In this document: piece by piece, positions 4,652-64,000 of the stretch
Numbering within the stretch: the first letter of the stretch is position 1
Layout of the letters: the number at the start of each line of letters is the position of its first letter
Virus record (IMG/VR): IMGVR_UViG_3300037755_000512
Length of the DNA stretch: 64,000 bases
Origin: a virus
Reading direction: 5' to 3' (one strand)
Notes under the pieces: generated by a model
The model's input: the letters and a program-made list of their open reading frames with translations, nothing else
What the model was told of the DNA's origin: nothing
Database searches by the model: none
Translations under genes and position numbers: made by a program

Positions 4652-5095
4652 CCACACTGGGTTTACCTTGTGTTTTTTCACAATTCTCTTGAGTAGCGGG
4701 ATCGTTACAGATGAGCGATTGCTTTCAATAAAGGATACAACATCTCTGGTTGTGCCGATAGAATCAGCGAACAAAGCTTGTGACACGCCTAGGTCGTACC
4801 TAATCGCTTTAACCCTTGCGTTTACTTCGGAGTCAAGAAGTGGCTCGTATTGCTGTTCCGAGTATTTGTATTCCTCGATATCCTTCAGTGTAAAAGGGTT
4901 TCCGTTTCCGAGTAACAGCCACTCCTCTGACACAGGAAAAATTGATACGATAGACTTAATCATCTTAAACGATGGATCGTCGTTCCTTGTTGCAGACAGG
5001 ACATTAATAATAGCCGATTTGGAGCTTCCGATTTTTTTGGCAAAAGATAGTGTACGCCCCAGTGCCCTTAGGGGTTTTGTGTTTTGCTTTTTCAT
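4613..5095 (-). CDS. XRE/CI-like transcriptional repressor with two HTH domains
   Basis: Two helix-turn-helix units (LRALGRTLSFAKKIGSSKSAIINVLS and IRYDLGVSQALFADSIGTTRDVVSFIESNRSSVTIPLLKRI); divergent from plus-strand early genes across an operator-like region 5096-5267 rich in TGTCAA repeats. Confidence 0.75.
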   Translation of the reverse strand: MKKQNTKPLRALGRTLSFAKKIGSSKSAIINVLSATRNDDPSFKMIKSIVSIFPVSEEWLLLGNGNPFTLKDIEEYKYSEQQYEPLLDSEVNARVKAIRYDLGVSQALFADSIGTTRDVVSFIESNRSSVTIPLLKRIVKKHKVNPVWLLFGEGDRNLRR

Positions 5096-5667: not shown

Positions 5668-5965
5668 CAAAGATTTTTTCATGGAAATCTGGAACCAGAG
5701 ACCCCACTACAGTGAAGTCTCTGGAAAATACCTCGGCGAAGAACCGATGGCTTATTTTTTTGCGCATGTATGCTCAAAGGGGGCCCATCCAAAACTCAAA
5801 TTCGAAAAGAGAAACATTATGCTTATGACGCTTGTCGAGCACATAATATGGGACACTAGAGTTCCAGAGGGAAAGATGTGGGATAAGGTCAAAGACCGAA
5901 AAGAGGAAATGCAAAAATTATCTGCAAGTTTTCATAGGACACCCCTTTTATTTAATCCAAAATAG
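5651..5965 (+). CDS. hypothetical protein
   Basis: 104-aa ORF in the early operon. Confidence 0.4.
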   Translation: MKRKSSKDFFMEIWNQRPHYSEVSGKYLGEEPMAYFFAHVCSKGAHPKLKFEKRNIMLMTLVEHIIWDTRVPEGKMWDKVKDRKEEMQKLSASFHRTPLLFNPK

Positions 5966-26500: not shown

Positions 26501-27024
26501 CCATAAAATAGCTTCTCGAATGTAGGCGGAAGGGTAGGCCCTCTATGAATAACTAAAATCTCCTCTTCCTTGACAGGCGGAGTTACGGCATGTCTTGTTC
26601 TGTGAATGCAACGTGGTTTGTTAAAATTGTCTGTCAGGAATATAAGGTCACCAGCGATTCCTCCTCCGTTAATTCTATGCTCCTTCAATGGGCTGAAGTT
26701 CAATCCAGACCATGTTATTACATTTGTAACTACATCTTTATTTAACTCAAGGACACAATTCTTGTCGGGGTCCGTGTTATAGAAACAAAGAAAATGTACA
26801 TCGTCAGTTACAGACCTGATACCCCCTATAAACTTGGAGTTTGTGTCAAGAAAAGATCCTGTATTAACAACAGTAGTCCCACGAACATTCTCAATAGCGC
26901 CTCTTTGGGAGGCCTGAGAACGACCGGAAATAAAGTTGGCCGCGAACTGATAGTCATCAGGAGATAAAATCTCAACCGAATCGTCGGTATTGAGACCACC
27001 AGTAAACGTTCTGATTTGTTCCAT
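23575..27024 (-). CDS. tail fibre/tailspike-like protein (1149 aa)
   Basis: Large beta-rich ORF with poly-Thr linker and a GVSPSPVGETGTV module shared with the 265-aa protein at 27764-28561. Confidence 0.6.
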   Translation of the reverse strand: MEQIRTFTGGLNTDDSVEILSPDDYQFAANFISGRSQASQRGAIENVRGTTVVNTGSFLDTNSKFIGGIRSVTDDVHFLCFYNTDPDKNCVLELNKDVVTNVITWSGLNFSPLKEHRINGGGIAGDLIFLTDNFNKPRCIHRTRHAVTPPVKEEEILVIHRGPTLPPTFEKLFYGDELGSYTESSTTTTTLSVTTTIDPSLPQRGNIVINGNVYTYNSFSSNTFAGVSPSPVGETGTVKVHEYILANLINDFSFQYAYHYEYYDNQISVLSPYSSLCTRSVIQEDYKKVRVTIPADEEIPVKVKEIVISARVNNTGSFFEIGRLKRSAGVFDVLYFDFYNNTNGNLLDPFLSQPYSLVPRRAGSMSLSKSRLWMGNILEGYDTPEDVDLEYGIEVAESATPSTYSVYTLVKKTYEALGNGPPWKWILISTETVVWDTSFQYIIKRDGVIDVVEYTPTWGTGDAPLSRHSGFTNIPQSDYTSQTPPPSPHAGGEQYYTYTYVLTQADVLVNFNPLLSDLEGTKTFPSDSSYKLGILYSDSEGQKCGVLTKESLQIDTPDRKVNSIKINWSLSTHDNIPSWADTFSIVLTKNLKKSWFVENYSIDVHYYRVKSDSSEDIYHGDGSNLYKNYPYVRVNIKNFPLNGLSYSFVEGDRILLKQVGTSTKYDLDLVIKSFDGEYLLCERGDMEVPLTELAYNEIEIYRPITTGGADVVFYEIGHTYKIIQTSTTPLFSVTSGVIEGDTVITGREVYVQNTEVEKTDTSAAFKTISLDNNSIWNTDIGRPFIQTPVGEVLKSAYFRHSATFIAGTKINGLSDFDSGDEGNIPVESGTIQRLQSTNKEATEGDVLLAVSNSDTYSIYIDEARLTTGTSSFLIGATKVVGDVRKQKSGFGTLHPESVHEEDGYVYFFDKLSRSFCRYATNGIFPISEYKAVTHFEDQAALNSEDDEVVTGYDPFYKILFVTFTNAATNTRKTIGWSLVKERWISFFDFAPEGYVVGSNSMYSIKGGVLYKHNDTVNNNRFYGVDFDSMVELSFNDGPDFVKEWLSLGVGCSPNLYAFNGVDQKVITNGLKTDVYNRHNQTTDILWDEFEVNENMVYGEIRGDKNTGGVLDGDTMYSNTAQCRITMLSGINKYLLYAKVGFEVSRGHEL

Positions 27025-41037: not shown

Positions 41038-43332
41038 TTACACAATTTTGGGCGCGTTTGCTTTTTCCTTAGATTTAATCAATGCAGTTTCTCTGGTAGC
41101 ATCAGCAGCAGTTTGCGCTACCGTTTTCTTTGCCTCGTTCTGCTCAGAAGATACTCCACCCTTCAGTTCCCATTCGCGTTCTAACAGAACCAATTTCCAT
41201 TGATTCTCCTTATCCACAAGAGTGCCTTTAACCATAGCCTCAAGCTCAAACGTTTTCCTTTTCTCTTCTTCTGCTGCCCGAGCGGCTATGGCAGATGCTT
41301 CGGCATTACCCATTTTGTCTGCCTGAGCAAGGGCCGCTTGTTTTTCTTGGTTCTTCTGAATTCTGAACGCAAGCAGCAGCTCCGCTTGCTTTAAGTTCCG
41401 GACACGCTTAATCGCTATCGAGTCTGCAATTGTTATTTGTCCTGACTGAATAGCAAGGTTGATCATATTTTGTAAATTAATCTTCTCTTCGCTGTCAGCG
41501 TCATACTCAATTGCAATTCCATAAATTCTATGCAGCGGACCTTCATCTTGCTTAAGACTCTTGATATTTGATGGAGCAACTATGTTTCTGTAAACAGAGT
41601 TCTTTTTGAAGGTCATCGAATCATGCACTCTTACCGCTATCTCGTCTGCCAGAACTTCAATCAAGTATCTCTCCGCCATTAACAGGTGGTGGAGCGCGTT
41701 AGATGTTGCTTCTTGGGCCAGTCCAGCCACCCCATTTAGAAGTTTGGGGTCTGGCGTAGATCCATCGGTAACCTCATTCATACCTATAAGTCCAGCCATG
41801 TAAGACATGAACTTGTCTATTACAGCAAAGTACTCTGCGGCCTCAGTCCCAAGACCGTTCTTCAATTCCTCAATAGGCCTGTAGTTTGATGCTGTACCAT
41901 CTGGTGCCAGCTTTCTATACACCAGCACACCGGTCTGTGTAAACATGTCAAGAATAGACAGGGGCGACATGGCGGCGGATTCATCCCCACCCTCACCTAG
42001 TGATATATCCTCAAGGGCTCCGATTTCAATCAGAATACCTTTAGGTCTCGCTTTCGCTATTACGTTTTGAAGTTTGTACCACGCCAGAACAACCTGATCA
42101 ACAATTGGCATCATTTGCTCAATCATTGGGTTGGTCTCCATAGCGTTTAGCTCAGGAGCTACAGCCAAGTAACTTAGCCTTGTGTCCCAGATGTGAGAAT
42201 CTTTCCTGTAGACATCAGACTTCAGGCCATAGTTGAACATTATGTCAGTGTCAATGATCCATTTATGCCTATACACAACAATATCGGTATCCGAATAATA
42301 CTCTCGATCAGATTTCCTTGATGGTCCCTCCACTCCTCCTATGACCGGATTACCCCTTTTGTCCCACCTCTTTTCGTACCAGTATTTATTGCATGACAAG
42401 AACTCGCCGTCATACACGGGTATCTTTACACTGTCGTAGGCGAAAGACCCAATAGCGCCAACAGAATAACTGTTCTTATTTCCATGATTCCCTATGTGCT
42501 TTTGGGCAATACTCTCAAGCTGATCCTCACTCACATCAACACCACTCGCCTTGCACTCTCTCCTTATTTCATCAATAGTCATTAACACCGCTTCGCCTGC
42601 ATACCAGATGTCTTTGAAGTATGGATCGAGGGTAGGGGAGACAATAAAATTATTTGGATTAACAACCCTAAACCCAACCTTGCCAGTCTCAAGGTCAGTG
42701 AAGGCCTTGAAGATAGCCACCCCAGAATCAAACAGCCTATCACGTATAACCGTCAAGGCCTCTTTTATTCTGCCGTCAGTAAATACAGCGTCCACCTTTT
42801 TCTCAATGTCAATGGCCATGTTGTGCTTGTAACCAAACTCCATTTTGATAGCCAGCTCTTCTTCTTCTATTGGTTGGTCAAACTCTCCACTCGATAACAC
42901 ATCAACCGGCAGCCCTAGCTCGGTGAGCATATCACGAACTTTGATGTTTGCCTGCTCTGTTGCCTCATAGTCCAATTTGTCCTCAAGCGCATAGTTGTCA
43001 ATGGCTTGAGCGTTAATTACAAAATCGATCTTTGAGTGTTTGTTATTGATGATTCTCTTGAACCTTGGAATGATTGCCGGTGGAGACAAATCCAGATTAA
43101 CAAAAGATGTGTTCGTATCGTCAGATACCTCAAACATTGGTTTGTATATGTCGTTAGGCTGTTTCCCAAGAGAATAAAGCCTGTTGAGATTGTACCTATC
43201 GGCACCCTTGTTGAAGCTTTTTATCGACTGATTGTCGAATTCCTCCCAGATAGCCTTGATCATCTGGAGCATCCACTTCTCACCCTTTTCTTTTGGGTTG
43301 ACGTAATGATTTGGAAAGGTGTAATTTGCCAT
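41038..43332 (-). CDS. putative portal protein
   Basis: 764-aa ORF directly downstream of the large terminase gene with overlapping stop/start; assignment by size and synteny. Confidence 0.5.
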   Translation of the reverse strand: MANYTFPNHYVNPKEKGEKWMLQMIKAIWEEFDNQSIKSFNKGADRYNLNRLYSLGKQPNDIYKPMFEVSDDTNTSFVNLDLSPPAIIPRFKRIINNKHSKIDFVINAQAIDNYALEDKLDYEATEQANIKVRDMLTELGLPVDVLSSGEFDQPIEEEELAIKMEFGYKHNMAIDIEKKVDAVFTDGRIKEALTVIRDRLFDSGVAIFKAFTDLETGKVGFRVVNPNNFIVSPTLDPYFKDIWYAGEAVLMTIDEIRRECKASGVDVSEDQLESIAQKHIGNHGNKNSYSVGAIGSFAYDSVKIPVYDGEFLSCNKYWYEKRWDKRGNPVIGGVEGPSRKSDREYYSDTDIVVYRHKWIIDTDIMFNYGLKSDVYRKDSHIWDTRLSYLAVAPELNAMETNPMIEQMMPIVDQVVLAWYKLQNVIAKARPKGILIEIGALEDISLGEGGDESAAMSPLSILDMFTQTGVLVYRKLAPDGTASNYRPIEELKNGLGTEAAEYFAVIDKFMSYMAGLIGMNEVTDGSTPDPKLLNGVAGLAQEATSNALHHLLMAERYLIEVLADEIAVRVHDSMTFKKNSVYRNIVAPSNIKSLKQDEGPLHRIYGIAIEYDADSEEKINLQNMINLAIQSGQITIADSIAIKRVRNLKQAELLLAFRIQKNQEKQAALAQADKMGNAEASAIAARAAEEEKRKTFELEAMVKGTLVDKENQWKLVLLEREWELKGGVSSEQNEAKKTVAQTAADATRETALIKSKEKANAPKIV

Positions 43333-45358
43333 TCTTTTTTAGTTTATATCTTCTTTGAAACTTGTTGGGGTTAATTCTTCCCCTGCTTTGTAGTGTTTGA
43401 TGACGGCGCTTAATTCTTTTGGCCGCAATCAAAGCGTACCCCGACGCCATGCCTAGGTCAAACTTTTCAGTGTCATCAAGCTTAAAATCCTTCCAATCTC
43501 TCAATAGTTCTGGATGGTTTACCCTGTGGCAATGCTCGTCTATAAATAATTCCGTATGCTCTACAATTGATTGGTGAGACTTGGTTGACGCAGAAATGCC
43601 CTCGTTTCCTTTTTCATCAACCATGATAAACGCCGCATAACCCCTGTCATGGAAATACGCTCTGATCCCCTGCTTCTGATCTTCAAACAGCATCTGACAT
43701 CCGAAATAATGGCAGAGCTTAATCATGTCCTCGTAAAATATCGCCGCAGTTTGTGGTCGGTTTGCGTAGATAGCCACAAAGTTATCTGAGTCACCCTGAT
43801 CGAACGGATCAAACTTTCTGTATACCGCCGCAGCCCCTTTAGAAAATCTCCCTGTCTTAGTCCTGTTGTGATCGTATGGGTCAATTCCAATTACGAAATG
43901 AAGTATGTTCTTTGGGATCACATTAGTTCCTCGGATATGTACATTGTTTGCCTTATCCGGATCCTCGAATATCCAGCTAAACTGGAATCTTCCCTTCGAT
44001 GTTTTTACCAGCTTTACTTTTGTTTTTTCTTCATCCTCCCATAACAGATCGTATCTGGTTTCGTAATCTTTCTTCCAATTCAACAAGTCAAGACGGTCAT
44101 CTATTTTGATCGCGTTGTATAAACAGTTGTCGCCATCAGTTCTGAAGGCTTCCTGCCATGTAGTCGGGTTTTTGCGGATGAAAGAAGCGAGTGCCCTCGG
44201 ATCATCTATAAGATCCAGTCTCCTCTTCATTAAGTGTTCCAGTCCTCTCTTGCTATCAGGAATCCCGTACTTATCAAGGTAGATCATATCCTGAGCCGGA
44301 GTAAAGAATCTGTACAGTCCAGATTTAGTCCTGCTGTCAGACTGTCTCTTGCTTTGATCTGAGTCTTTCCATAATTGCTCGTAAGACTCAAGGTATCCTT
44401 CCATATCTTCTACGGTGGAAGTATAAATAGCCTTACCTAAAATTGTCCATCCATCTGAGTCTTCGAAACACGGCTTAACCTGATAGTGCCTCTTCAAAAC
44501 GTCAAGATCTATTGTCTTGAACACCTCGTCACACATGTATCTGGTTAGTTTCTCTCCGTCATAAGCCTCAGGTTTTGAGTTTCTATAATTGATCAACGAC
44601 TCTAATTCTGAATCGACATCGTACTGGTTTGAATCTAACTCTCCCCTCTTAGAAGATTTATAGAATCTTAATTCCCTCTTCGGCACATCGCCCTGAGACC
44701 TGTCGTATTGTGGTTTGAAAAAGTCTGGCAGTTTTCTGAAGGGCTGAACACACGCCTTTCCAAACACACTCTTTGCGTCCGCCTCGACCTTTGACTGGAT
44801 GCCGGACCACGAGTTAGGAACCCTTGTGGCATGTTCAGTAATGAAGCATCCTGCCCAAAAAGTTTTTCCAATCCGACGTTTAGTTATCTCAATTAGCCCA
44901 TAAGCATCAGGATCATTAACCACATAATCAGTTATGTAGGCTTTTTTTAAGTCTGGAAGACGAAACTTCGGCAGCCCAATATCTATCCGCCAGTGCGTGA
45001 GGTAGTAATAGTACAACCCTGTCAAATAAGTCATCTTTCCATTGTTCAGGAACCAAGCCCCGAACTTGCGACGATGCCATTCTCTGGCTCTGTACTTTTG
45101 AAGATCAGTGTCAACGTAGTTGGCATCAAGTCTCTTCATCTCCTTCTCCCTTGACATTCTACGGGAGTAATCCTTTGACGGGGTGGGTGGCTCCCAGAAT
45201 TGCTCGGTCTTAATTGTAGACCGAACTATTACATCGGTGTCGTCAAGCCTTCCTGTTTCATAATTCCACACCTTTCCTTCTGGTGGTAAATACACCCTTA
45301 TAGCAAGGTCTCCCTCGCCAACAACCATCGATGACCCTCCTTTAATTTTATTGTACAT
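43280..45358 (-). CDS. terL: terminase large subunit
   Basis: 692-aa ORF; ATPase-like ...ITKRRIGKTFWAG... and a nuclease-domain-like VIGIDPYDH acidic motif; first gene of the structural operon. Confidence 0.55.
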   Translation of the reverse strand: MYNKIKGGSSMVVGEGDLAIRVYLPPEGKVWNYETGRLDDTDVIVRSTIKTEQFWEPPTPSKDYSRRMSREKEMKRLDANYVDTDLQKYRAREWHRRKFGAWFLNNGKMTYLTGLYYYYLTHWRIDIGLPKFRLPDLKKAYITDYVVNDPDAYGLIEITKRRIGKTFWAGCFITEHATRVPNSWSGIQSKVEADAKSVFGKACVQPFRKLPDFFKPQYDRSQGDVPKRELRFYKSSKRGELDSNQYDVDSELESLINYRNSKPEAYDGEKLTRYMCDEVFKTIDLDVLKRHYQVKPCFEDSDGWTILGKAIYTSTVEDMEGYLESYEQLWKDSDQSKRQSDSRTKSGLYRFFTPAQDMIYLDKYGIPDSKRGLEHLMKRRLDLIDDPRALASFIRKNPTTWQEAFRTDGDNCLYNAIKIDDRLDLLNWKKDYETRYDLLWEDEEKTKVKLVKTSKGRFQFSWIFEDPDKANNVHIRGTNVIPKNILHFVIGIDPYDHNRTKTGRFSKGAAAVYRKFDPFDQGDSDNFVAIYANRPQTAAIFYEDMIKLCHYFGCQMLFEDQKQGIRAYFHDRGYAAFIMVDEKGNEGISASTKSHQSIVEHTELFIDEHCHRVNHPELLRDWKDFKLDDTEKFDLGMASGYALIAAKRIKRRHQTLQSRGRINPNKFQRRYKLKKNGKLHLSKSLRQPKRKG

Positions 45359-46146: not shown

Positions 46147-46395
46147 CTAAACTCTGTTCTGGCCCTCGACATTTCTGGCAACCCTGTCAAGGGTTCTTTT
46201 GTTGAGCCACATTAGGGCCTCCTCAAGTTTTGTTATGGCTAAAGAATTTTCACGACAAGAAAATTTTTTATTCAGGTAATTCAGTCTGTCTATCAATATA
46301 GCAATAAATGCCAAAGAGCAATACCAATGAGCTTCTTTGATAAGCATTACGGAAAGGCTGTCTTTAATCCAGACTAAAGACAGGATCAACATCAA
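46147..46395 (-). CDS. hypothetical protein
   Basis: 82-aa ORF. Confidence 0.3.
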   Translation of the reverse strand: MMLILSLVWIKDSLSVMLIKEAHWYCSLAFIAILIDRLNYLNKKFSCRENSLAITKLEEALMWLNKRTLDRVARNVEGQNRV

Positions 46396-47271: not shown

Positions 47272-47702
47272 TTACCGGTGTTTCGAGAGGACTGATGAAA
47301 TAATAAATCACCTCTGTTTCGGTACCTTCTGTTCATGGTGTCATGCACTATCCAATAACCATCTATCTCAGGGTCATTAGCAGTAATTAGCACCGTGTCC
47401 CCATAGACAAATGTTTTGCTACGAATGATATCTTGAGACAAAGCCATCCACCTGATTTCACCAGACTTAAGCCTTGCTAGGTTTATCCTTGCTCCAGAAG
47501 CAGTTATCAACGGCGCGTCATCTGTTTGACTCGGGACAGGGTTGTATACAGTCAGCACGTCCAGCACAATCCTCTCCGGTGTGGCCTCCCTAGAAGAAAA
47601 GCTGATCATTATGAATAGAAATAGCAATATTCTCATGAGCTTGGTTTTAAGTGAAACTTTCTTCATCTTCTTACAAAATCTTTTCTCTCTTTCTATTGTC
47701 AT
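47217..47702 (-). CDS. secreted 3D-domain (MltA-like) peptidoglycan hydrolase
   Basis: N-terminal signal/TM (MKKVSLKTKLMRILLFLFIMISF), then DDAPLITASGARI...GDTVLITANDPEIDGYWIVHDTMNRRYRNRGDLLF with the three conserved Asp of the 3D domain. Confidence 0.5.
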   Translation of the reverse strand: MTIEREKRFCKKMKKVSLKTKLMRILLFLFIMISFSSREATPERIVLDVLTVYNPVPSQTDDAPLITASGARINLARLKSGEIRWMALSQDIIRSKTFVYGDTVLITANDPEIDGYWIVHDTMNRRYRNRGDLLFHQSSRNTGKWMNVTIKKISRTWKRNQ

Positions 47703-48646
47703 ACTAACTCCTTAAGATCTTTGATTCGTTTATACCCAACATCATATCTTTGGTTATGAGCAGCATCCATCAGGTATGTACACACACCACCTTTGTTTAA
47801 TTCGACAAACGTCTCAAACCTGTCGTCAACAAAAATTTCTATTCCGGATGACTTGGCGATATCAAGCTTTGAGTTATTGTGGCCTACGGTATACACGGGC
47901 GCTTTTGGAAAACCATAAATATCCAACCACTCCATAGTTACCTCACTCGGAACGGTTCGGCTGGTTATGTAGCAATGCGGTTCGAAAGGGAGTCCGAGAG
48001 GGTTGACTTTGACCGGAATACTCATCCAAAAATAAATATCATTGGCAACCTCAGAGAACCTCTTGGATAAAAGAGGATCGTTCCAGTAAACAGGACGTGT
48101 TTTGATTTCTGGAAACCTGAGCATCATAGCGCCAATAAAGTCGGCAAGCACTTCATCGACATCCAGTCCGATCTTGCGGCGTTGCAGATATAAATGATTT
48201 CGGTTGTCAAACTCAGGATGGGTTTTTTCAAACTCCATTAACGCCAGCAGACCCCATCCAGCATTTGCCAAGTGTTTTGTTTTTAAGTCAGGATCAAGAT
48301 CTTCTCCGTTTTTCCATGCGGTAATATGGCGCTCAACACTCTCCATGCACTCAAGCCACCCCTGACCCTTGCGCCAGTTGTCTGCGCCAGACTCAATGAC
48401 GGTCAGCCTTTTTTTTGCGACATCATTGATCGGTATATCCTTACCCAGCACTCTGTTTCCTTCCTCGTCCCCGTACACAGTATATTTATGTGCCCCCTCA
48501 GTATAAACATCAACTATTGACTTGATCGGAGACGTTGGAACTAAACCATACCTTGGTTTTCCTGCGTTGTATCTTTTTGCCTGTTCTGCCATAATATTTA
48601 TTCCAAGACTGACATTACCGTATTGAGAACTTTTGGGTCTAACCAT
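47699..48646 (-). CDS. fusion protein: N-terminal nucleotide pyrophosphohydrolase-like region + C-terminal HAD-superfamily 5'-deoxynucleotidase
   Basis: HAD motif I IGLDVDEVLADF (DxDxV) and motif IV FVDDR in the C-terminal half; N-terminal ~130 aa helical (MazG-like?) region. Confidence 0.5.
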   Translation of the reverse strand: MVRPKSSQYGNVSLGINIMAEQAKRYNAGKPRYGLVPTSPIKSIVDVYTEGAHKYTVYGDEEGNRVLGKDIPINDVAKKRLTVIESGADNWRKGQGWLECMESVERHITAWKNGEDLDPDLKTKHLANAGWGLLALMEFEKTHPEFDNRNHLYLQRRKIGLDVDEVLADFIGAMMLRFPEIKTRPVYWNDPLLSKRFSEVANDIYFWMSIPVKVNPLGLPFEPHCYITSRTVPSEVTMEWLDIYGFPKAPVYTVGHNNSKLDIAKSSGIEIFVDDRFETFVELNKGGVCTYLMDAAHNQRYDVGYKRIKDLKELV

Positions 48647-48894: not shown

Positions 48895-49277
48895 AAATCG
48901 GTTGTTACAGTCATTACATCATTAAAATCTAAGTAGGCGTAGATTGCTTTTTCAACCCTCTTGAGCCTATTGTGTTGAGGGGCATCAAAGACGTCTATGA
49001 ATATTTTTCCCTTCAGTTTTTCTTCCGCCAACGATCTGAGGTCCTTTGTTTTTGCAGCGTACTGCAATCCGTTAAGAGTAAAAGCAACCATTCTGACGTC
49101 GGAGTACAACCATCCCAATTCTCCATTTTGGTCTTTCACCTCCACCTCAAACACTAGCCGTCCAGTTAAATCGCCCAGCCAATAAGCCTCAAAACTCACC
49201 CTAGCTTTTATAGGGATGCTCTGATCGGCCTTGGCCACCAAGTCAAGGCAGTGCATAAATGAATCTTTAAGAAACAT
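48891..49277 (-). CDS. hypothetical protein (target of the leader-proximal CRISPR spacer)
   Basis: 128-aa ORF; protospacer at 48968-48997. Confidence 0.45.
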   Translation of the reverse strand: MFLKDSFMHCLDLVAKADQSIPIKARVSFEAYWLGDLTGRLVFEVEVKDQNGELGWLYSDVRMVAFTLNGLQYAAKTKDLRSLAEEKLKGKIFIDVFDAPQHNRLKRVEKAIYAYLDFNDVMTVTTDL

Positions 49278-51180: not shown

Positions 51181-51257
51181 CGCGGAGCGATCCACAAAGA
51201 GAGAGGTTACCCGCCTTGGAAGCGGGGTTATTGCAAGTTCGAGTCTTGCCTTCGCGA
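51181..51257 (+). tRNA. tRNA-Pro (anticodon TGG), irregular D-arm
   Basis: Hand-folded: acceptor cgcggag/cttcgcg, anticodon arm cccgc-cttggaa-gcggg, T-arm gcaag-ttcgagt-cttgc; D-arm lacks the usual GG and pairs poorly. Confidence 0.4.
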
Positions 51258-51327
51258 CGGAACGTATTTCTGGCTCGAGTCCAGACGAAGGTCGGTCAGG
51301 GATTTCTGTAGTGTAATCGGCAACACG

Positions 51328-51412
51328 CGTTCATATCCTGATCCGCCAGAGCTGGGACTGTCTGTAAAACAGTTGCCTTCTGGCTGAGTGGGTTCGAATC
51401 CCACGTGATGGA
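51328..51412 (+). tRNA. tRNA-Tyr-like (anticodon GTA), long variable arm; 5' end uncertain
   Basis: Anticodon arm actgt-ctgtaaa-acagt at 51357-51373, T-arm gtggg-ttcgaat-cccac at 51386-51404; could not pair a clean acceptor stem. Confidence 0.3.
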
Positions 51413-51419
51413 CTAATAT

Positions 51420-51492
51420 TTCTGGTTAGTATAACGGCAAGTACGCCTGACTTTGACTCAGGTATCTGTCAGTTCGACTCCGACCTTTCACC
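51420..51492 (+). tRNA. tRNA-Gln-like (anticodon TTG), acceptor stem apparently unpaired (possible pseudo-tRNA)
   Basis: D-arm gtat-aacggcaa-gtac, anticodon arm cctga-ctttgac-tcagg, T-arm gtcag-ttcgact-ccgac; the 5'/3' ends do not form a 7-bp stem. Confidence 0.3.
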
Positions 51493-51555
51493 CTTAATGG
51501 AAAATATTATTTACAATAAACGGCTGTTTTTGTAAAGAATATTTGACAACACTAT

Positions 51556-51600
51556 CCTCCTGTAGTTTAACTGGTCGGGGTTCGAATCCCCGCAGGAGGC
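51556..51600 (+). other. 45-nt tRNA-like minihelix (acceptor stem + consensus T-arm only)
   Basis: cctcctg ... cgggg-ttcgaat-ccccg caggagg c: perfect 7-bp acceptor-like stem plus canonical GGTTCGAATCC T-loop, with no D or anticodon arm. Confidence 0.3.
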
Positions 51601-51621
51601 CTGAGAGGATTGCAAAAAAGA

Positions 51622-51710
51622 GCCCCAGTGATGGAATTGGCGAGACATGTCAGATTTAGACTCTGATGCGAAATAACAGTAGCGTGTAGGTTCGGGTCCT
51701 ACTTGGGGTA
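51622..51710 (+). tRNA. tRNA-Leu (anticodon TAG), type II
   Basis: Acceptor gccccag/ttggggt (2 G-U), D-stem atg/cat, anticodon arm tcaga-tttagac-tctga, long variable arm, T-arm gtagg-ttcgggt-cctac. Confidence 0.55.
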
Positions 51711-51715
51711 CTTAT

Positions 51716-51805
51716 AGGCTCATGGTGAAAACGGTAAACACGTCAGGCTTAAACCCTGATGCGAACTAAAAAATAAGCTTGCCGGTTCGAGTCCGGCTGG
51801 GCCTA
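51716..51805 (+). tRNA. tRNA-Leu (anticodon TAA), type II
   Basis: Acceptor aggctca/tgggcct, D-stem gtg/cac with GG loop, anticodon arm tcagg-cttaaac-cctga, long variable arm, T-arm gccgg-ttcgagt-ccggc. Confidence 0.55.
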
Positions 51806-51941
51806 CTATATGGAGAGTAAACCTGCTAGGGTAGGGGCGCTCTGCTAAGGCGCACGTGCGGTAATACGCATGTGGATCATGACCACTGCTCTCCGCGTTC
51901 ATTACAGTAAACGAACGTTTACTAATTTTGTTTAATGTTAC

Positions 51942-52024
51942 GGAGGTCGTCCGAATGAACGAGGACACTATTTTGAAAACAGCTGGGCTTAACGGCTTTG
52001 GGGGTTCGATTCCCTTGGCCTCCG
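51942..52024 (+). tRNA. tRNA-like gene, identity unresolved
   Basis: Acceptor ggaggtc/ggcctcc and T-loop ttcgatt present; anticodon arm could not be resolved by hand. Confidence 0.3.
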
Positions 52025-52159
52025 CTGACCAAGGGATATATTAAAGATGTTAAGAGAAGGGATGGAGCTCTACCCCCCACCCTTCCATTCATTGTATGCT
52101 TTTAAATATATAACCGCAAAAACACTAAAAAATATATGCTTTTACGTCGGTCTCCCCAG

Positions 52160-52226
52160 AGTTCATGGTGAGATTCGAACTCACGCTTCGAGTTTTGCAG
52201 ACCCGATTTTGCACCGAGCCATGAAC
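52160..52226 (-). tRNA. tRNA-Cys-like (anticodon GCA) with a shortened D region
   Basis: Minus strand: acceptor gttcatg/catgaac, anticodon arm cgggt-ctgcaaa-actcg, T-arm gtgag-ttcgaat-ctcac; only ~14 nt where a D-arm should be. Confidence 0.25.
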
Positions 52227-52354
52227 TTAAAAAAACCCCACAAGGTGCGCTTGGATCAGAGGCGTATGGGGTGTGTTGGGCGACAGGAGAGGGTTGAAGC
52301 AAAAGACTCGTTCTTGGGGCGCTGTTCTTATGGGTGAGCGTGGCGAGTACTTCG

Positions 52355-52426
52355 TGCAAAGGGCTGGAGTCGAACCAACGGCCACCGGCTTTTCAGACCG
52401 GCACTCTACCACTGAGTTACCGATGC
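52355..52426 (-). tRNA. tRNA-Phe (anticodon GAA); acceptor stem has 2 central mismatches
   Basis: Minus strand: gcatcgg-ta-actcagtggtagagt..., anticodon arm ccggt-ctgaaaa-gccgg, T-arm gttgg-ttcgact-ccagc, 3' acceptor cctttgc. Confidence 0.45.
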
Positions 52427-52435
52427 AATTTAGTA

Positions 52436-52522
52436 GCGGAGGTGGGAATCGAACCCAGTAGAAGTGCTTATGAGACACCCAAGCTCACCAGAGCTGCCTA
52501 CAACCGCAATTTTGTAGTGATG
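52436..52522 (-). tRNA. tRNA-Met/Ile-like (anticodon CAT); acceptor pairing not found
   Basis: Minus strand: D-stem aggc/gctt, anticodon arm ggtgt-ctcataa-gcact, T-loop ttcgatt; possible pseudo-tRNA. Confidence 0.25.
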
Positions 52523-52595
52523 ATAGGTTACGATCCTACTCTCTCGAACGTATCAGATTCGCGCTTTCCCGATTAAGCTACATCACTATTTTTAG

Positions 52596-52670
52596 TTCCG
52601 CCGGTGGGAATCGAACTCACTTTTTGTCTGGTTAAAAGCCAGAAGCAATACCAAATTTTGCTACGACGGA
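52596..52670 (-). tRNA. tRNA-Lys (anticodon TTT)
   Basis: Minus strand: acceptor tccgtcg/cggcgga, anticodon stem ctgg/ccag with loop cttttaa, T-arm gtgag-ttcgatt-cccac. Confidence 0.5.
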
Positions 52671-52851
52671 GTAAACCTTGTCGTAGTCCTTTTTATTTGT
52701 TTTCATATTAGCTTTTGTTTGCTGTTACTATTTTTAACCTTTAATGTAACAATCTTGTTAGTTACAACTTTGTTAGTTGGCCCTGCGGGTACCGATCCCA
52801 CGCCCTGTTCATTATGAGTGAACTGCTCCTCCATTAAGCTAAGGGCCGATG

Positions 52852-52923
52852 AACTCCTGTCGGGATTCGAACCCGAACTGATGAGGTAGAAACACATAGT
52901 TCTTCCGATTAAACTACAGGAGT
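52852..52923 (-). tRNA. tRNA-Arg-like (anticodon TCT)
   Basis: Minus strand: perfect acceptor actcctg/caggagt, D-stem agtt/aact, anticodon loop tttctac, T-arm tcggg-ttcgaat-cccga. Confidence 0.4.
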
Positions 52924-52957
52924 TTATTAGAATAATCTATGTCTTCTTCTTTCCATG

Positions 52958-53030
52958 AGGTCCCTCAGAGAATCGAACTCTGTATCTTCTGGTTACAAAT
53001 CAGTGGCATCGCCAGCAATGCTTAGGAACC
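52958..53030 (-). tRNA. tRNA-like gene, anticodon unresolved
   Basis: Minus strand: acceptor ggttcct/agggacc, D-stem gcat/atgc, T-arm cagag-ttcgatt-ctctg; anticodon arm irregular (ctg-atttgtaac-cag). Confidence 0.3.
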
Positions 53031-53055
53031 TTTTTATTTCGCATTTCGCGAATTG

Positions 53056-53127
53056 CACGGGTGGTAGGACTCGAACCTACAGTCACGGTTTTGGAGACCG
53101 TTGGTTTACCGATTAACCGACACCGGT
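53056..53127 (-). tRNA. tRNA-Trp (anticodon CCA)
   Basis: Minus strand: D-stem ggtt/aacc, anticodon arm acggt-ctccaaa-accgt, T-arm gtagg-ttcgagt-cctac; one C-C mismatch in the acceptor stem. Confidence 0.5.
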
Positions 53128-53161
53128 GTTTTGAGAGGTTGTAAATGCAATCCTCTCGGTG

Positions 53162-53233
53162 AGGGAAGGGAATGATTCGAACATTCGTAAGGCACATTAA
53201 CAGTGTGCTGCCTGACCACTAGGCTACCAACCC
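53162..53233 (-). tRNA. tRNA-Asn (anticodon GTT); acceptor has 2 U-U mismatches
   Basis: Minus strand: gggttgg-ta-gcct-agtggtc-aggc, anticodon arm gcaca-ctgttaa-tgtgc, T-arm gaatg-ttcgaat-cattc. Confidence 0.45.
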
Positions 53234-53242
53234 TTTTTATTG

Positions 53243-53315
53243 CAGTACTGACGGGAGTCGAACCCGCTCCGTTCTTCGTGACAGGAAGACATCTTATCCA
53301 TTTGACCTCAGCACT
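53243..53315 (-). tRNA. tRNA-Asp (anticodon GTC)
   Basis: Minus strand: acceptor agtgctg/cagtact, anticodon arm tcttc-ctgtcac-gaaga, T-arm gcggg-ttcgact-cccgt. Confidence 0.5.
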
Positions 53316-53425
53316 GTGATAGTCCGACAGGGTCGAGCGGTTGACCTGACGCTTTTGATCCGCAACTCCCAGTTGAATGTACGCTTTACTGGGCACGTCA
53401 TTTCGACCCTGTCGGAACTTTGTTG

Positions 53426-53500
53426 TGGAACCATAGGGGATCGAACCCTACTCGCGGATCTTGCAAGGATCTGCCGCCAAGCCGAGGAACATGTGGCCCC
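53426..53500 (-). tRNA. tRNA-Ala (anticodon TGC)
   Basis: Minus strand: acceptor ggggcca/tggttcc (2 G-U), anticodon loop cttgcaa, T-arm taggg-ttcgatc-cccta. Confidence 0.45.
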
Positions 53501-53673
53501 AAATTAAAAAGCTCCAGATTTTACTTTGGAGCTTTTTTGTCGACATCTATTCACCTTACTAAATGAGTTGCTCCAATGGAATACCTCCCTTGCCCCAATT
53601 AATTGTGGCGCCGTTCATTCTCGCGATATTAAAGCAACTCATTTTCATTTCATGTAGTTTTATACCAAAAATA

Positions 53674-53720
53674 TATACATCATATCTGTCAGGGGACTTG
53701 TGAAGTCCCCTGACAGATAT
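53674..53720. promoter_or_regulatory. perfect 19-bp inverted repeat with 9-bp loop (bidirectional terminator or recombination/regulatory site)
   Basis: catcatatctgtcagggga-cttgtgaag-tcccctgacagatatgatg. Confidence 0.6.
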
Positions 53721-53807
53721 GATGTCATTGCCTTTTGATAGCTTTCAAACTCATCGTTAGAAGCGTAATTCAATTGGATAGAGCGTCGTTGGTGGTAACA
53801 CGGTTAG

Positions 53808-53882
53808 TACTGCTGACGAGACTCGAACTCGCTAGTACACGCCTTGAAAGGGCGCGGCCTCGACCACTTCGGCTTCAGCAGC
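53808..53882 (-). tRNA. tRNA-Glu (anticodon TTC)
   Basis: Minus strand: acceptor gctgctg/cagcagt, anticodon arm gcgcc-ctttcaa-ggcgt, T-arm gcgag-ttcgagt-ctcgt. Confidence 0.45.
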
Positions 53883-58618: not shown

Positions 58619-58830
58619 TCCGCGCAGGCGCTTTGTATTTGGCGGAGTCAGATAAGCAGATTCGTGAAGGCGACACTATTAAAAGTGATTACTGGTATGA
58701 GCGCGCATTACTGACAGCCAAACTTATCGACAGTGATGATAGTGAATTAAAAAAAATCTAAGCATCTCCATAAACAAACAAGAAGCACTTGAGCGCCTTA
58801 CAGCCTAAGAGGGTTGCTAAACTAAACCAC

Positions 58831-60600: not shown

Positions 60601-60990
60601 ATGGATTTATCCAACAAACCGGCATTCATAAACAAACAAGAAGCACTTGAGCGCCTTACAGCCTTAGAGGCAGAAGCGAAGAAATTAAGAACCGTCATAG
60701 GAAGCGAACCAAAAAAATCAAAAGAAGAGCGATTTTGGGAGCTAATTCTTCGGACGGATTCGGTTAAAATGTGTAAGGAAACATATCCCAATTCAATTTT
60801 TGGGTTCAGGGGTGAGGATTTTTTGTGGGAGTACGATTCAGAAAATCGCCATCTATGGTTAAGTTATAGGCTTATTTGGTCGGTTCTTGAAGATGAATAC
60901 TCACTGCAACACCATGATATTCAGGCATATATAAAGACGGAGGTAGAACAGCGTTTCAAAACACAGGCTGTGACACCTAGACGTCTTTGA
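60601..60990 (+). CDS. hypothetical protein; the 3' end of the ORF runs into the first CRISPR repeat
   Basis: 129-aa ORF; last ~16 codons are translated repeat/spacer sequence (VEQRFKTQAVTP), so the real stop may be earlier or the gene may be disrupted by the array. Confidence 0.3.
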   Translation: MDLSNKPAFINKQEALERLTALEAEAKKLRTVIGSEPKKSKEERFWELILRTDSVKMCKETYPNSIFGFRGEDFLWEYDSENRHLWLSYRLIWSVLEDEYSLQHHDIQAYIKTEVEQRFKTQAVTPRRL

Positions 60991-61689
60991 TGCCCCTCAA
61001 CACAATAGGTAGAACAGCGTTTCAAAACACAGGCTGTGACACCCACACATCCTCGGGATGATCGATCAGTACTGGTAGAACAGCGTTTCAAAACACAGGC
61101 TGTGACACCCCAGCTTTCTATACACCAGCACACCGGTCTGGTAGAACAGCGTTTCAAAACACAGGCTGTGACACCATACTTAGGGGTTTTGGTGTGTCTT
61201 GGTCTGGTAGAACAGCGTTTCAAAACACAGGCTGTGACACCTACTTTTGAAGATCAGTGTCAACGTAGTTGGGTAGAACAGCGTTTCAAAACACAGGCTG
61301 TGACACCGGACCCCGACAAGAATTGTGTCCTTGAGTTGGTAGAACAGCGTTTCAAAACACAGGCTGTGACACCCACGCGCGGTCGAGTACGGTCATGCTA
61401 TAGGGTAGAACAGCGTTTCAAAACACAGGGTGTGACACCAGATTCCTTTCATGCAGGGCACAGCCAACAGGTAGAACAGCATTTCAAAACACAGGGTGTG
61501 ACACCTTTCAGCCGACCCATGAAACGAGACACGTATGGTAGAACAGCATTTCAAAACACAGGGTGTGACACCAAAGCCGTTATTGAGTTTCAATGATGAG
61601 GAGGTAGAACAGCTTTTCGGAGTAAAAATATCCACTAATGTCAAGTTTAAGGTATATAAAACTGGCAGAACAACACTTCAAAACGAAGA
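60942..61689 (+). CRISPR. CRISPR array: 10 intact 36-bp repeats (GGTAGAACAGCGTTTCAAAACACAGGCTGTGACACC), 30-31-bp spacers, plus 2 degenerate terminal repeats
   Basis: Read directly: repeats at 60942, 61008, 61074, 61140, 61206, 61272, 61338, 61404, 61470, 61537; repeats 8-10 carry point mutations and two further decayed copies start at ~61603 and ~61654, so the leader is at the low-coordinate end; no cas gene or anti-repeat seen in the window. Confidence 0.9.
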
Positions 61690-62275
61690 GGGGACGCCTG
61701 ATAGGTGTATCACGGACAAGGCGAGCAGGGTTGTTTCGATAAAAAGGTTAAGGTGATGTATTATGGGGCCAATTACAGGCACAGAGAACGACCACAGTTT
61801 TTAGGCGCAGGGGAAGCTGTGTTTTTGGAGATCTACCGCCACAGAGCCCCTGTTAAAGCCCTGCATGTCGTAATTCTTACGCGAGAATCTTAAGTGTTAA
61901 TTTTACCCAGGATTTGGGCTCCTACAAAAGTGGCGACCTATATACCTGACGGGGACGAAACGAAAAGGAAAAACGCGAATTTCGAGGGGGGTGGGGGTTC
62001 ATTTCTGGCAAAAAAAATAGGAAAATAGGGGAAATGAGAACGAAATTAAGGTATTGGATGGCAAGGCGAAATGACCGCACCGGTCTACCTTGGAAGGTTG
62101 ACCTAATAATGTAAACAGTTGATTATCAGTAGTATTGAGAGAAAAAACACGTTGTCTGACCTATAAACCAGACAACAAATACACATTGGGAATATGCAGC
62201 CATTCGGTTGCATATCCGCGTGTCCATATACCTAACAACCGCAACGCTATAATCCATCCCGATAGCCAGCACTGA

Positions 62276-62323
62276 AGTCAGCCTATAACCTGACAAACTA
62301 CGACCAAAAGTCAGCCTATAACC
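62276..62323. repeat. two direct copies of an 18-bp site with palindromic arms (GTCAGCCTATAACCTGAC), plus a variant at 62155
   Basis: agtcagcctataacctgaca ... agtcagcctataacctgacg; variant gtctgacctataaaccagac at 62155-62174 next to a CCAGACAAC iteron. Confidence 0.5.
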
Positions 62324-62420
62324 TGACGAAATCATCATAACTCGAACAAGCTTTTTCTAGCAACCAGAAAAATAATCTCATTGACTGTGATAAATTATTG
62401 GCAAACTAAACAACAAGACG

Positions 62421-62981
62421 ATGAAAACACCACATCCATCCGGCCAAGCATACAAAAAAATCATCCCATCCGACCGCAAGCATTACGAAAAACGGGCCAA
62501 AGTTTTCGCCGACAAGGCCAAAAGACGTATACACAAGCACCATAGAAAGACCTCGCAGGTATACCGAAACTGGAATATCCAAAAGGTTGGTATTGCGTAC
62601 TCCTATTATACGCTCGACGTGGCGATGGAACATACCCGCAAGGGATTCCAGCAACAGTATGGACAAAAACTTAGACCTGCCTCTATGAGGTTTCTTTGTT
62701 GCGTACATTCATATTGCGCATACACCAACCAAAGTACATTCACCTATACAGACCTGTATGACTGGATTGCAAAGCACGAACATGCACCACGGCTATTAAT
62801 ATTCACACCACGAGAGGTTTCTACCCGTATAGGGGAACTACTGAAGCTTCATTTTCTCAACCCTCTCCCGTACCATGCCTTCACTCCCACGCATCGCATG
62901 AACCTGATCATGAAAATGATGGAGAGTAACCATCGCATGATACTCGACAAGCATTTTCCAATAGACCAACCAGAAAAATAA
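62421..62981 (+). CDS. basic hypothetical protein (186 aa) flanked by ~30-50-bp direct repeats
   Basis: Lys/Arg/His-rich N-terminus; the 3'-terminal sequence caaccagaaaaataatctca[c/t]tgactgtga also occurs 30-60 bp upstream of its start (62361-62392 vs 62968-62999). Confidence 0.45.
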   Translation: MKTPHPSGQAYKKIIPSDRKHYEKRAKVFADKAKRRIHKHHRKTSQVYRNWNIQKVGIAYSYYTLDVAMEHTRKGFQQQYGQKLRPASMRFLCCVHSYCAYTNQSTFTYTDLYDWIAKHEHAPRLLIFTPREVSTRIGELLKLHFLNPLPYHAFTPTHRMNLIMKMMESNHRMILDKHFPIDQPEK

Positions 62982-63447
62982 TCTCACTGACTGTGAGCAA
63001 GTTACGCTCATCGCGTAAAAATTATTTGCGTATTGTTTTGGTGCTTTGAGTAAAACCTACGATCATTGCATATCGAATTGACGCAACAACGCGGGGGCCA
63101 GATGGGCCCACAATTCGCTCCCTCCTTTGAAGTGCTTAACTTCCCATGGTGTTACACGGATATTAACAGGTACACTAAGGACTCATAATAGTTTGCGGTC
63201 ATCGTTGTGAAACGTAGCGAGCAGGAGGCCTTCATAAGGTTTTTAAAAAGCACTTTGACCCGACAAACTGATGAGCGGGACATATTATACCCAAAACGCA
63301 AACTTACGAGGGGTGGTACCCTTTCTGGTAGATGTTCTAACCAGATTAAGTAAGGGAGATGCAGGGCCAAAGATCAATGCTAAAAGCATCGAAACATCCC
63401 ACTAGAAATAGTGGGTGGGTTTTTGTCAAACTAAAACATCAAAAACC

Positions 63448-64000
63448 ATGAAAACAATTTATTTGTATGACGGCCATTCGAACAAAGTTTCGTTTCAGTA
63501 CAATGATATTTCTGAGCTAAAATCAGAGCTAGAAAAAAGAAATATCACCATCGGAAACAGGGTCACCATCGGAGACGGGGCCACCATCGGAGACTGGGCC
63601 ACCATCGGATACGGGGCCACCATCGGATACAGGGCCACCATCGGATACGGGGCCAACATCGGAGACAGGGCTAGAATCGGAGACGGGGCCAGCATCGGAT
63701 ACAGGGCCACCATCGGAAACGAGGCCACCATCGGAGACAGGGCCACCATCGGAAACAGGGCCGGCATCGGAAACGAGGCCACCATCGGAGACGGGGCCAC
63801 CATCGGATACAGGGCCACCATCGGATACAGGGCCACCATCGGATACGGGGCCACCATCGGAGACTGGGCTAGAATCGGATACAGGGCCAACATCGGATAC
63901 AGGGTCACCATCGGAAACGAGGCCACCATCGGAAACGAGGCCACCATCGGAAACAGGGTCAGCGTCGGGTTCGAGGCCACCATCGGGGACTGGGCCACCA
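63448..64000 (+). CDS. hexapeptide-repeat (left-handed beta-helix-like) protein, 3'-truncated by the window end
   Basis: ATG at 63448 preceded by a TTTTGTCAAAC box; after ~35 aa the frame encodes >25 tandem [TA]IG[DNY]xA hexapeptides from an 18-bp DNA tandem repeat (accatcggaNacNgggcc). Confidence 0.45.
   Translation, partial: MKTIYLYDGHSNKVSFQYNDISELKSELEKRNITIGNRVTIGDGATIGDWATIGYGATIGYRATIGYGANIGDRARIGDGASIGYRATIGNEATIGDRATIGNRAGIGNEATIGDGATIGYRATIGYRATIGYGATIGDWARIGYRANIGYRVTIGNEATIGNEATIGNRVSVGFEATIGDWAT
63552..64000 (+). repeat. 18-bp tandem DNA repeat array (>=25 copies) underlying the hexapeptide-repeat ORF
   Basis: accatcggagacggggcc / accatcggatacagggcc ... continuing to the window edge. 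Confidence 0.8.

Follow-up and report, generated by a model that had tools for sequence, protein, structure and literature searches.

A CRISPR-type array anchored on a conserved phage gene and carrying self-matching, motif-flanked spacers in a Bacteroidota-type podophage

The IMG/VR virus record IMGVR_UViG_3300037755_000512, of which a stretch of 64,000 nucleotides (nt) was analyzed (hereafter the window), carries at positions 60942-61572 (plus strand) an array of the CRISPR type, composed of ten 36-nt repeats (R1-R10) and nine spacers (S1-S9; 60978-61536). Its first repeat lies within the 3′ coding end of a conserved phage open reading frame (ORF), ORF129 (60601-60990, plus strand; 129 aa), and most of its spacers are exact copies of sites in the very genome that carries it, each located next to the motif NNNT(C/A)AA. 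We consider it fairly probable that this is a genuine CRISPR-type array belonging to the phage, which was seeded by ORF129 and has taken its self-derived spacers at NNNT(C/A)AA, with a type II system providing the best fit. Of this reading, the array, its self-matches, the motif, the phage context and the recurrent fusion of gene and repeat are established.

Seven of the nine spacers match the window perfectly. Four of the corresponding protospacers are located on the minus strand: (i) that of S1 (48968-48997), in a 128-aa ORF, with the 3′ flank ggctcaag and TCAA at 48961-48964, (ii) that of S6 (26744-26773), in a 1149-aa muzzle-like structural gene (aaataaag; TAAA at 26737-26740), (iii) that of S8 (16126-16155), in a 1955-aa ORF (tgatcaag; TCAA at 16119-16122) and (iv) that of S9 (11352-11382), in a primase/helicase gene (aagtcaat; TCAA at 11345-11348). 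The remaining three, on the plus strand, are the protospacers of S3 (41907-41936; portal gene; gtgtaaac; TAAA at 41940-41943), S4 (6551-6580; RecE/YqaJ-like exonuclease gene; gaatcaat; TCAA at 6584-6587) and S5 (45093-45122; large terminase gene; gcatcaag; TCAA at 45126-45129). With respect to the targeted genes, four spacers are in the sense (S1, S4, S6 and S8) and three in the antisense orientation (S3, S5 and S9). No match to S2 or S7 was found in the window, even with up to six mismatches allowed, nor in the remaining phage genome or in IMG/VR.

When the 3′ flanks are read in the orientation of the array, position +4 is occupied by T and positions +6 and +7 by AA in all seven cases, while position +5 is C in five and A in two. 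This position-wise composition reproduces the seven 8-mers on which a first-pass annotation had based NNNT(A/C)AA as a candidate Cas9 protospacer adjacent motif (PAM); its coordinates for the 36-nt repeats and 30-nt spacers across 60978-61536 were exact, and its observation of targets on both strands of one genome holds as well. The motif is well beyond chance. The background frequency of T[AC]AA is 1.25% of positions, and its presence in seven of seven flanks at one fixed offset corresponds to p ~5e-14. Among 20,000 random sets of seven sites, for which 15 nt on both sides of the protospacer were scanned, none reached the observed information content and none contained three invariant columns inside a 4-nt window. 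The 5′ flanks of the seven protospacers gave no signal. NNNT(C/A)AA is a genuine spacer-acquisition motif or PAM, and the origin of spacers from a mobile element, next to a conserved motif, is what is generally seen in CRISPR arrays. The repeats start with GGTAGAA and lack the motif, and the array itself is therefore not a target.

The repeat unit (GGTAGAACAGCGTTTCAAAACACAGGCTGTGACACC, 36 nt) recurs with a period of 66-67 nt, its copies starting at positions 60942, 61008, 61074, 61140, 61206, 61272, 61338, 61404, 61470 and 61537 (plus strand). One substitution is present in R8 and two in each of R9 and R10. Eight spacers are 30 nt long and S9 is 31 nt, so that the region combines direct repeats of constant length with unique spacers of near-constant length, as is characteristic of CRISPR. 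An older part can be recognized beyond R10. It starts with S10 (61573-61602, plus strand), the oldest recognizable spacer, which matches a site at the start of a 206-aa phage gene (59438-59467, plus strand) at 27 of 30 positions; the flank of this diverged protospacer (3 mismatches) is tgattttt, in which the motif has been lost. Two relic repeats follow, namely R11 (61603-61638, plus strand; 20/36 identical), whose first 16 nt are kept and whose 3′ half has decayed, and R12 (61664-61698, plus strand; 23/36 identical, compared with a background maximum of 21/36 over 60 kb). A variant of the locus (contig L004, positions 5831-5963; ERZ27256803) lacks exactly one unit, comprised of a repeat plus S4 (66 nt), and is otherwise identical; in this context, S3 and S4 share the end GGTCT. 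There is no non-coding AT-rich leader, the sequence 5′ of R1 being the coding sequence of ORF129. An iteron or a protein-coding tandem repeat was considered and rejected, since the spacers exactly reproduce remote genome sites of either strand and stop codons break the frame.

The repeats also carry information on the direction of growth. R9 and R10 encode VEQHFKTQGVTP, the form nearest to the consensus of the ORF129 family. Relative to this peptide, R8 differs by H to R, and R1-R7 additionally by G to A. Judged from these sequences, the graded change between R10 and R1 seems to record successive states of the 3′ end of the gene, with the newest units beside it. The decayed relics R11 and R12 are confined to the gene-distal end, beyond S10, and in another lineage contig L073 has a single extra unit next to the gene when compared with the otherwise identical L070, although loss of this unit from L070 would give the same picture. 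Growth of the array at the gene-proximal end, with older units drifting and decaying distally, thus has support but falls short of proof; in this respect the gene side acts like a leader. Polarized growth with degenerate repeats at the old end is another general property of CRISPR arrays. The motif-adjacent end of every spacer points away from the gene side, and the 3′ location of the motif, with its offset of three N, holds for spacers read starting at the growing end.

The genome that the spacers target is also the one that contains the array, which is attached there to a conserved phage gene. This setting, which the first-pass annotation had taken otherwise, changes the biological meaning of the motif. 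The carrier is a ~67-kb Bacteroidota-type podophage, of which the window represents ~95%. Encoded in the window are a portal protein, large terminase, SU10-type capsid protein, primase/helicase, RecE/YqaJ exonuclease, a protein whose N-terminus is that of a crAss muzzle, structural proteins from giant ORFs and an integrase-like protein, as well as 14 tRNA genes (51181-53882, both strands; Pro, two Leu, Phe, two Met, Ile, Lys, Arg, Thr, Trp, Asn, Asp and Glu). The terminase is closest (~29% identity) to those of Flavobacterium, Cellulophaga, Tenacibaculum and Azobacteroides phages, and a Bacteroidota host is therefore likely. Comparison of the window with the INPHARED phages (megablast and blastn) revealed no match.

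The same phage was recovered from many samples by exact protein look-ups. The array is covered in full by contigs of seven samples, which agree in their junctions and, apart from the S4-less variant, in their spacers. Phage genes are present on both sides, and the contigs run on 3′ of the array, through more phage genes, into the start of the window, which gives a genome of ~67,052 bp; one ENA contig is 67,582 bp long. Six of the seven protospacers, together with their motifs, are intact in every covering contig, including parts of the 67.6-kb array-bearing contig, the S6 region lying outside contig coverage. These data bear on the explanation that a host array, serving ordinary host immunity, was joined to phage DNA by misassembly, or that a prophage is located beside a host array. 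Perfect PAM-flanked matches to a phage are indeed how a host array typically looks, and the phage encodes an integrase-like gene and a helix-turn-helix (HTH) repressor-like gene. However, both junctions consist of unique sequence and are identical across the seven samples and across different assembly pipelines, one of which was a k=141 assembly with a word length far above that of a 30-nt spacer. Moreover, phage genes lie on either side, the genome closes on itself at ~67 kb, and R1 is the conserved 3′ end of a phage gene, a fusion that was seen again in dozens of phage contigs unrelated to this one. We regard this explanation as extremely improbable. Capture of a host array by spacer-protospacer recombination was also considered and rejected, as the junctions are not located at protospacers and the gene-repeat fusion is ancient.

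ORF129 belongs to a large family of uncharacterized phage proteins. R1 constitutes the last 36 coding nt of the gene before a variable tail, and the stop codon of ORF129 is placed inside S1. Homologs with 48-63% identity align through the segment encoded by R1 (VEQRFKTQAVTP in ORF129; consensus VEEHFKCKGVTP), and several of them repeat the motif 22 residues further on, which equals a period of 66 nt. A profile search yielded 117 proteins of the family; 62 of 115 family ORFs run into at least two copies of the motif, at a spacing of 21-23 aa. An exhaustive search with a hidden Markov model detected 2,467 family clusters (E<=1e-3; clusters at 50% identity). At the DNA level, an array starting with the last 36 nt of the gene was present in 36 of the 45 family loci examined, and 74 of the 80 unique spacers across the family loci are 29-30 nt long (59 of 30 nt and 15 of 29 nt). 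Some relatives contain the gene-terminal repeat alone, or one spacer and half a repeat. The carriers range from 67 to 503 kb and include two huge phages, of 229 kb and 503 kb. The latter contains three gene-plus-array modules within 4 kb, and two or three tandem modules also occur in several other phages or contigs.

The repeats of each lineage copy the gene end of that lineage and diverge together with the gene. Conservation at third-codon (synonymous) positions amounts to 1.18 bits in the first half of R1 and to 0.58 bits in the rest of the gene, and conservation begins exactly at repeat position 1. Given this doubling of synonymous-site conservation, the repeat is constrained both as nucleic acid and as protein. 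For the protein, a fold was predicted with confidence (predicted local distance difference test score, 92), for which fold searches and comparison with Pfam, PHROG and PADLOC gave no informative match. The family was not found in INPHARED, nor in the GTDB genomes when these were scanned with the pattern [IV]KxxVEE[HY]FK.

Several additional forms of the gene were noted. A 44-nt segment at 58769-58812 (plus strand) is identical at 43 of 44 positions to codons 9-23 of ORF129 and contains an in-frame stop; it is probably, from this similarity, the relic of a second copy of the gene. The database ORFs P0118 (760 aa), P0119 (588 aa), P0120 (346 aa) and P0121 (864 aa) contain three to seven ORF129-like domains in one frame, each followed by one or two repeat-encoded motifs, and thus have the structure of tandem modules without stops. 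In the 503-kb phage (L080), an old module with five mutually diverged repeats (10279-10590), whose encoded peptides are still similar (e.g. LETHVKLEDYTP and LETHVKSDGYIP), is placed between two modules with uniform repeats (6 and 4 copies).

Spacers of a second lineage of the family, from contigs L063 and L065, match the related contigs L070 and L071 from the same environment. One spacer of L063 (359-388) matches, with 0-3 mismatches, a multi-copy sequence in the related contigs L070, L071 and L072, and would therefore target a dispersed repeat of related phage genomes. A scan for self-matches in a second phage of ~68 kb (L084) gave none within the 20 kb available, which is too little to tell; in the other family genomes, too, only small parts could be compared with their own spacers.

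Concerning the machinery that made the spacers, we infer that it was of the type II (Cas9)-like kind and that the motif is a type II-like PAM. This is the best-fitting reading because of the 3′ location of the motif with its N3 offset relative to the growing end, the 29-30-nt spacers, the 36-nt repeat and the lack of a conserved hairpin. RNAalifold, applied to 25 distinct repeats, gave no consensus pairs. The inner helix of the minimum free energy fold of the present repeat is paired in just 54% of cells, the only pairing retained being the invariant one between the GGU and ACC termini (3 bp), and the fold of the repeat is not better than those of shuffled sequences (z -1.4). Class 2 systems with the guide placed ahead of the repeat have this same 36/30 geometry. 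The array therefore shows several features of a type II locus, i.e. a PAM on the 3′ side in guide orientation (as judged from growth polarity and the direction of the flanking gene), an N offset, the 36/30 geometry and a repeat without conserved hairpin, whereas a locus with cas9, cas1 and cas2 and a tracrRNA (trans-activating CRISPR RNA) anti-repeat were not found in the phage genome. An unstructured repeat suits tracrRNA-dependent type II systems, where it pairs with the tracrRNA, better than types that depend on a hairpin. The attribution to a type II (Cas9) system made in the first-pass annotation consequently stands with regard to motif side, offset, geometry and unstructured repeat, but Cas9, Cas1, Cas2 and an anti-repeat were not found in the phage, nor was a host array with this repeat.

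The type II-A PAM of S. thermophilus is NNAGAAW. The corresponding motif of the II-C system of F. columnare is NNNNNTAAA (PMC8092290). The array resembles the products of type II adaptation in its 36/30 geometry, an A-rich downstream PAM several N away, targets on both strands, an unstructured repeat and a repeat 5′ end without PAM. Unlike type II loci, it is located on the target genome itself and not accompanied by detectable cas9, cas1, cas2 or tracrRNA.

An alternative, which we consider unlikely, is that the array mimics one of type VI-B (Cas13b) and received its spacers in trans from an adaptation module, of type II-C or another kind, residing in the same cell. In that case the motif would reflect acquisition by that module and be irrelevant to interference at the RNA level, and sense self spacers would be harmless and hence tolerated. 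A precedent exists in F. columnare, in which a 36/30 VI-B array is filled in trans by the II-C adaptation module and carries the II-C PAM (Hoikkala et al. 2021, PMC8092290). Newly acquired VI-B spacers of this bacterium are not enriched for the mRNA-targeting orientation (PMC8092290), which weakens the argument of the first-pass annotation that spacers from both strands speak against type VI. The geometry is exactly that of type VI-B (36/30 in the VI-B2 system of P. gingivalis, PMC13187072), the hosts of such systems are Bacteroidota, as the relatives of the phage suggest, and the GGU/ACC termini of the repeat are invariant and able to pair. A motive for the phage can also be named, since overexpressed guide-repeat RNAs can sequester Cas13b and lower the defense ~1000-fold (PMC13187072). 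The likeness to the F. columnare VI-B array extends to the lack of strand bias at acquisition and the tolerance of self-derived spacers.

However, what Cas13b recognizes is a hairpin made up of the whole repeat (PMC13187072), and neither such a hairpin nor an adjacent cas13b gene, with or without csx27/csx28, was found in the phage; the repeats of the family have no conserved internal helix, and the fold of the present one does not exceed shuffled sequences. The retained spacers are not biased toward complementarity to mRNAs, with 3/7 (plus-strand transcript) or 4/7 (minus-strand transcript) being complementary; such guides should trigger Cas13b, and their depletion was not seen. The PAM-adjacent spacer end also has the opposite orientation to the leader side when compared with the F. 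columnare array.

Returning to the type II interpretation of a phage-borne, self-fed array, a number of points weigh against it. Seven intact, motif-flanked self-targets should be lethal if a cognate DNA-cleaving effector used the guides, and their tolerance is unexplained. The orientation relative to the growing end is problematic as well: a 3′ PAM pointing away from the leader is the type II-A arrangement, and type II-A is untypical of Bacteroidota. In the II-C and VI-B arrays of F. columnare the PAM-adjacent spacer end faces the leader (PMC8092290), whereas here it faces away from the growing end, which is II-A-like and not as in F. columnare II-C. No Cas families (including Cas9, Cas1, Cas2 and Cas13b) were detected in the scanned ORFs or precomputed Pfam hits of the ~67-kb phage, and neither local alignment nor RNA duplex energy revealed a tracrRNA-like anti-repeat in the phage that exceeded background. 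No exact match to the repeat (a 34-mer with two degenerate sites and a 23-nt core) was found in GTDB genomes, IMG/VR and JGI metagenome contigs, the JGI collection evidently being without the JGI samples that hold the phage, and such exact or periodic pattern scans being of low sensitivity. Furthermore, the two protospacers found for the second lineage lack the same motif, the short-read assemblies do not strictly phase the array with its protospacers, and the samples represent one near-clonal genotype, without evolutionary depth for this array. As neither cas genes nor a host array with this repeat were found, the designation "Cas9 PAM" stays presumptive.

The other searches for related machinery gave similar results. 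Rfam yielded no CRISPR-DR or tracrRNA match, and scans of IMG/VR with periodic half-repeat patterns retrieved unrelated repeats only. A protein search with the translated array, intended to detect mis-called ORFs on host arrays, returned nothing, and an exact look-up of the ORF translated from the array retrieved the phage contig only. No similar repeat is present in the supplements of a PAM-repeat catalog (PMC8482600). The best duplex partner of the repeat within the phage (~4741-4800, minus strand; -33.8 kcal/mol, with -30.8 for the runner-up) lies inside an HTH repressor-like ORF (4613-5095) and forms a gapped, anti-repeat-like match, GTGTCACA..GC..TTTG..CGCTG..TTCTA. This match is probably due to chance, since it is within a coding region and barely an outlier. 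A host-encoded tracrRNA is possible.

Because the phage encodes no Cas proteins, the machinery is presumed to be that of the host. Adaptation machinery selecting sites next to NNNT(C/A)AA, presumably host Cas1-Cas2 with the choice of PAM made by a Cas9-like protein, would have cut the seven spacers from the DNA of the phage itself. During infection, the host complex would capture phage DNA and integrate it at the phage's own multi-copy repeat, so that new repeat-spacer units would be added beside the end of ORF129, while old units would diverge and degenerate on the opposite side. Adaptation by Cas1-Cas2, with the PAM chosen by a protein, is typically marked by such a 36/30 ruler, an offset 3′ motif and polarized growth. 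We infer that the insertions were the work of host Cas1-Cas2 and Cas9 and that guides matching the phage itself are tolerated by it. Possible reasons for this tolerance are (i) the absence of the effector from current hosts, (ii) an inhibitor encoded by the phage, (iii) a phage repeat that is incompetent for interference and (iv) late expression, which may be weak against a multi-copy, recombination-proficient genome. The module could also serve the phage as a decoy or sponge, or act against close relatives.

That the module is conserved, down to its synonymous sites, speaks for a benefit of the repeat to the phage. It might serve as a decoy for spacer integration, a sponge for effectors (cf. 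PMC10651486, PMC13187072) or a weapon against close relatives (cf. PMC11656645). In a broader proposal, which we put forward tentatively and consider possible but doubtful, the ORF129-family gene would be a dedicated, widespread module by which the phage genome acquires both a site for CRISPR integration and a transcript of guide plus repeat, acting as a lightning rod, a sponge or the core of an autonomous guided system, the self-derived PAM-flanked spacers being its footprint. As a lightning rod it might divert host spacer integration from the host array, and as a sponge it might load host effectors with guides chosen by the phage. No anti-adaptation or gene-anchored array mechanism of this kind was found in the literature searched.

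Another idea is that the module is fully autonomous, with the array being built and used by the ORF129-family protein and an unrecognized phage integrase or recombinase, independently of host Cas proteins. Such a module could be a system for regulation or exclusion guided by RNA or DNA, whose target preference the motif would reflect. In agreement with this, gene and repeat are fused and co-inherited over ~2,470 clusters in phages of 67-503 kb, the repeat diverges with the gene, two or three tandem modules occur in several phages, the host repeat and GTDB members of the family were not found, and the predicted fold of the protein is confident but unmatched. On the other hand, a 115-aa protein is too small for an integrase or effector, the loci seen contain no candidate integrase, Cas1-like or otherwise, in linkage with the module, and the negative searches behind the idea are exact-pattern scans of low sensitivity. 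Together with the decaying terminal repeat, the 36/30 ruler, offset PAM and polarized growth are moreover the marks of Cas1-Cas2. We judge an autonomous system to be quite improbable.

Virus-borne cas-less arrays and mini-arrays have reportedly been described by Medvedeva et al. (2019), Faure et al. (2019) and Al-Shayeb et al. (2020). Such elements are documented in several further sources (PMC7162821, PMC11656645, PMC12607003). Judging by their assembly accession series, the two huge phages with members of the ORF129 family may come from the Al-Shayeb data set. Like them, the array described here is compact, lacks cas genes, is located on a viral genome, presumably depends on host Cas proteins and has spacers that match the same virus lineage. 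The viral mini-arrays described, however, contain 1-2 spacers against related viruses and not against intact sites of the carrier, whereas nine to ten spacers are present here, 7/9 of the intact ones matching the carrier perfectly and with a PAM. In addition, a conserved phage gene supplies the first repeat with its coding 3′ end, and a non-coding leader is absent. Viral mini-arrays share the repeat of the host; for the present array, the insensitive exact and periodic scans of three collections, which did not cover all source samples, gave no other occurrence of the repeat.

The initiation of new arrays by ectopic spacer integration at repeat-like sites (neo-CRISPR) was reportedly described by Nivala et al. 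(2018). Ectopic spacer acquisition has been observed in S. thermophilus (PMC7999890). The similarity lies in the ability of Cas1-Cas2 to start or extend arrays at non-canonical sites resembling a leader-repeat junction. Unlike neo-CRISPR events, which are sporadic and affect host genomes, the seeding site is here a conserved part of the genes of a phage family of proteins, and its synonymous sites are conserved to an additional degree. A further parallel is provided by RNA anti-CRISPRs (Racrs) and extraneous CRISPR RNAs (crRNAs), i.e. phage copies of repeats able to load or sequester host Cas proteins (PMC10651486; PMC13187072); the last 30 nt of ORF129 together with R1 would form such an extraneous crRNA. 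In contrast to Racrs, which are solitary repeats without acquired spacers, the present locus is a growing array with PAM-selected spacers. The literature searched contained no account of a conserved phage gene whose coding end serves as a repeat, nor of a phage with many perfect, PAM-flanked matches to itself.

NNNT(C/A)AA provides a concrete acquisition motif for an uncharacterized, Bacteroidota-associated CRISPR machinery. Stable carriage by a phage of self-matching guides, with intact PAM-flanked sites, is predicted neither by models of self-targeting nor by those of mini-arrays. The analysis also reveals a large family of phage genes in which the 3′ coding end is at the same time the first repeat of a CRISPR array. 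If the module does divert or exploit host adaptation, it would represent a new class of counter-defense and a natural record of integration into phage DNA. If it is merely a tolerated by-product, host integrases would have to write into phage genomes often enough for arrays to become fixed.

Some other features of the phage were noted. The 800-nt non-coding stretch located 3′ of the array contains a 12-bp terminator-like hairpin on the minus strand (62150-62177) and two copies of a 23-nt hairpin-forming repeat (62275-62330). A 30-nt direct repeat (62361-62390 and 62967-62996) flanks the gene at 62421-62981 on both sides. These hairpins and repeats (62150-62996) could be small RNA or regulatory elements.

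Differences between the samples are confined to a gene of 18-nt tandem repeats, an ORF at 63449-64000 (also L001 14529-15047 and L005 3695-4003) encoding hexapeptide-like GDRATIGY... units; mismatches between samples in this ORF number 44 in L002 and 22 in L005. Other contigs contain a second copy of it, 3′ of a DUF932 gene.

In the replication module, an AAA ATPase (8852-9967, plus strand) gave PADLOC hits to IetA and TRIP13-type ATPases (E ~6e-12), which probably reflect generic AAA+ similarity. For this phage as recovered from other samples, precomputed Pfam hits assign an Acb2/Tad1-hairpin protein and a dGTP-diphosphohydrolase N-terminal domain to 46147-46347 (minus strand) and 47699-48646 (minus strand), respectively. 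The Acb2/Tad1-hairpin family comprises sponges for anti-phage signaling nucleotides, and these hits suggest the presence of more counter-defense or nucleotide-modification genes.

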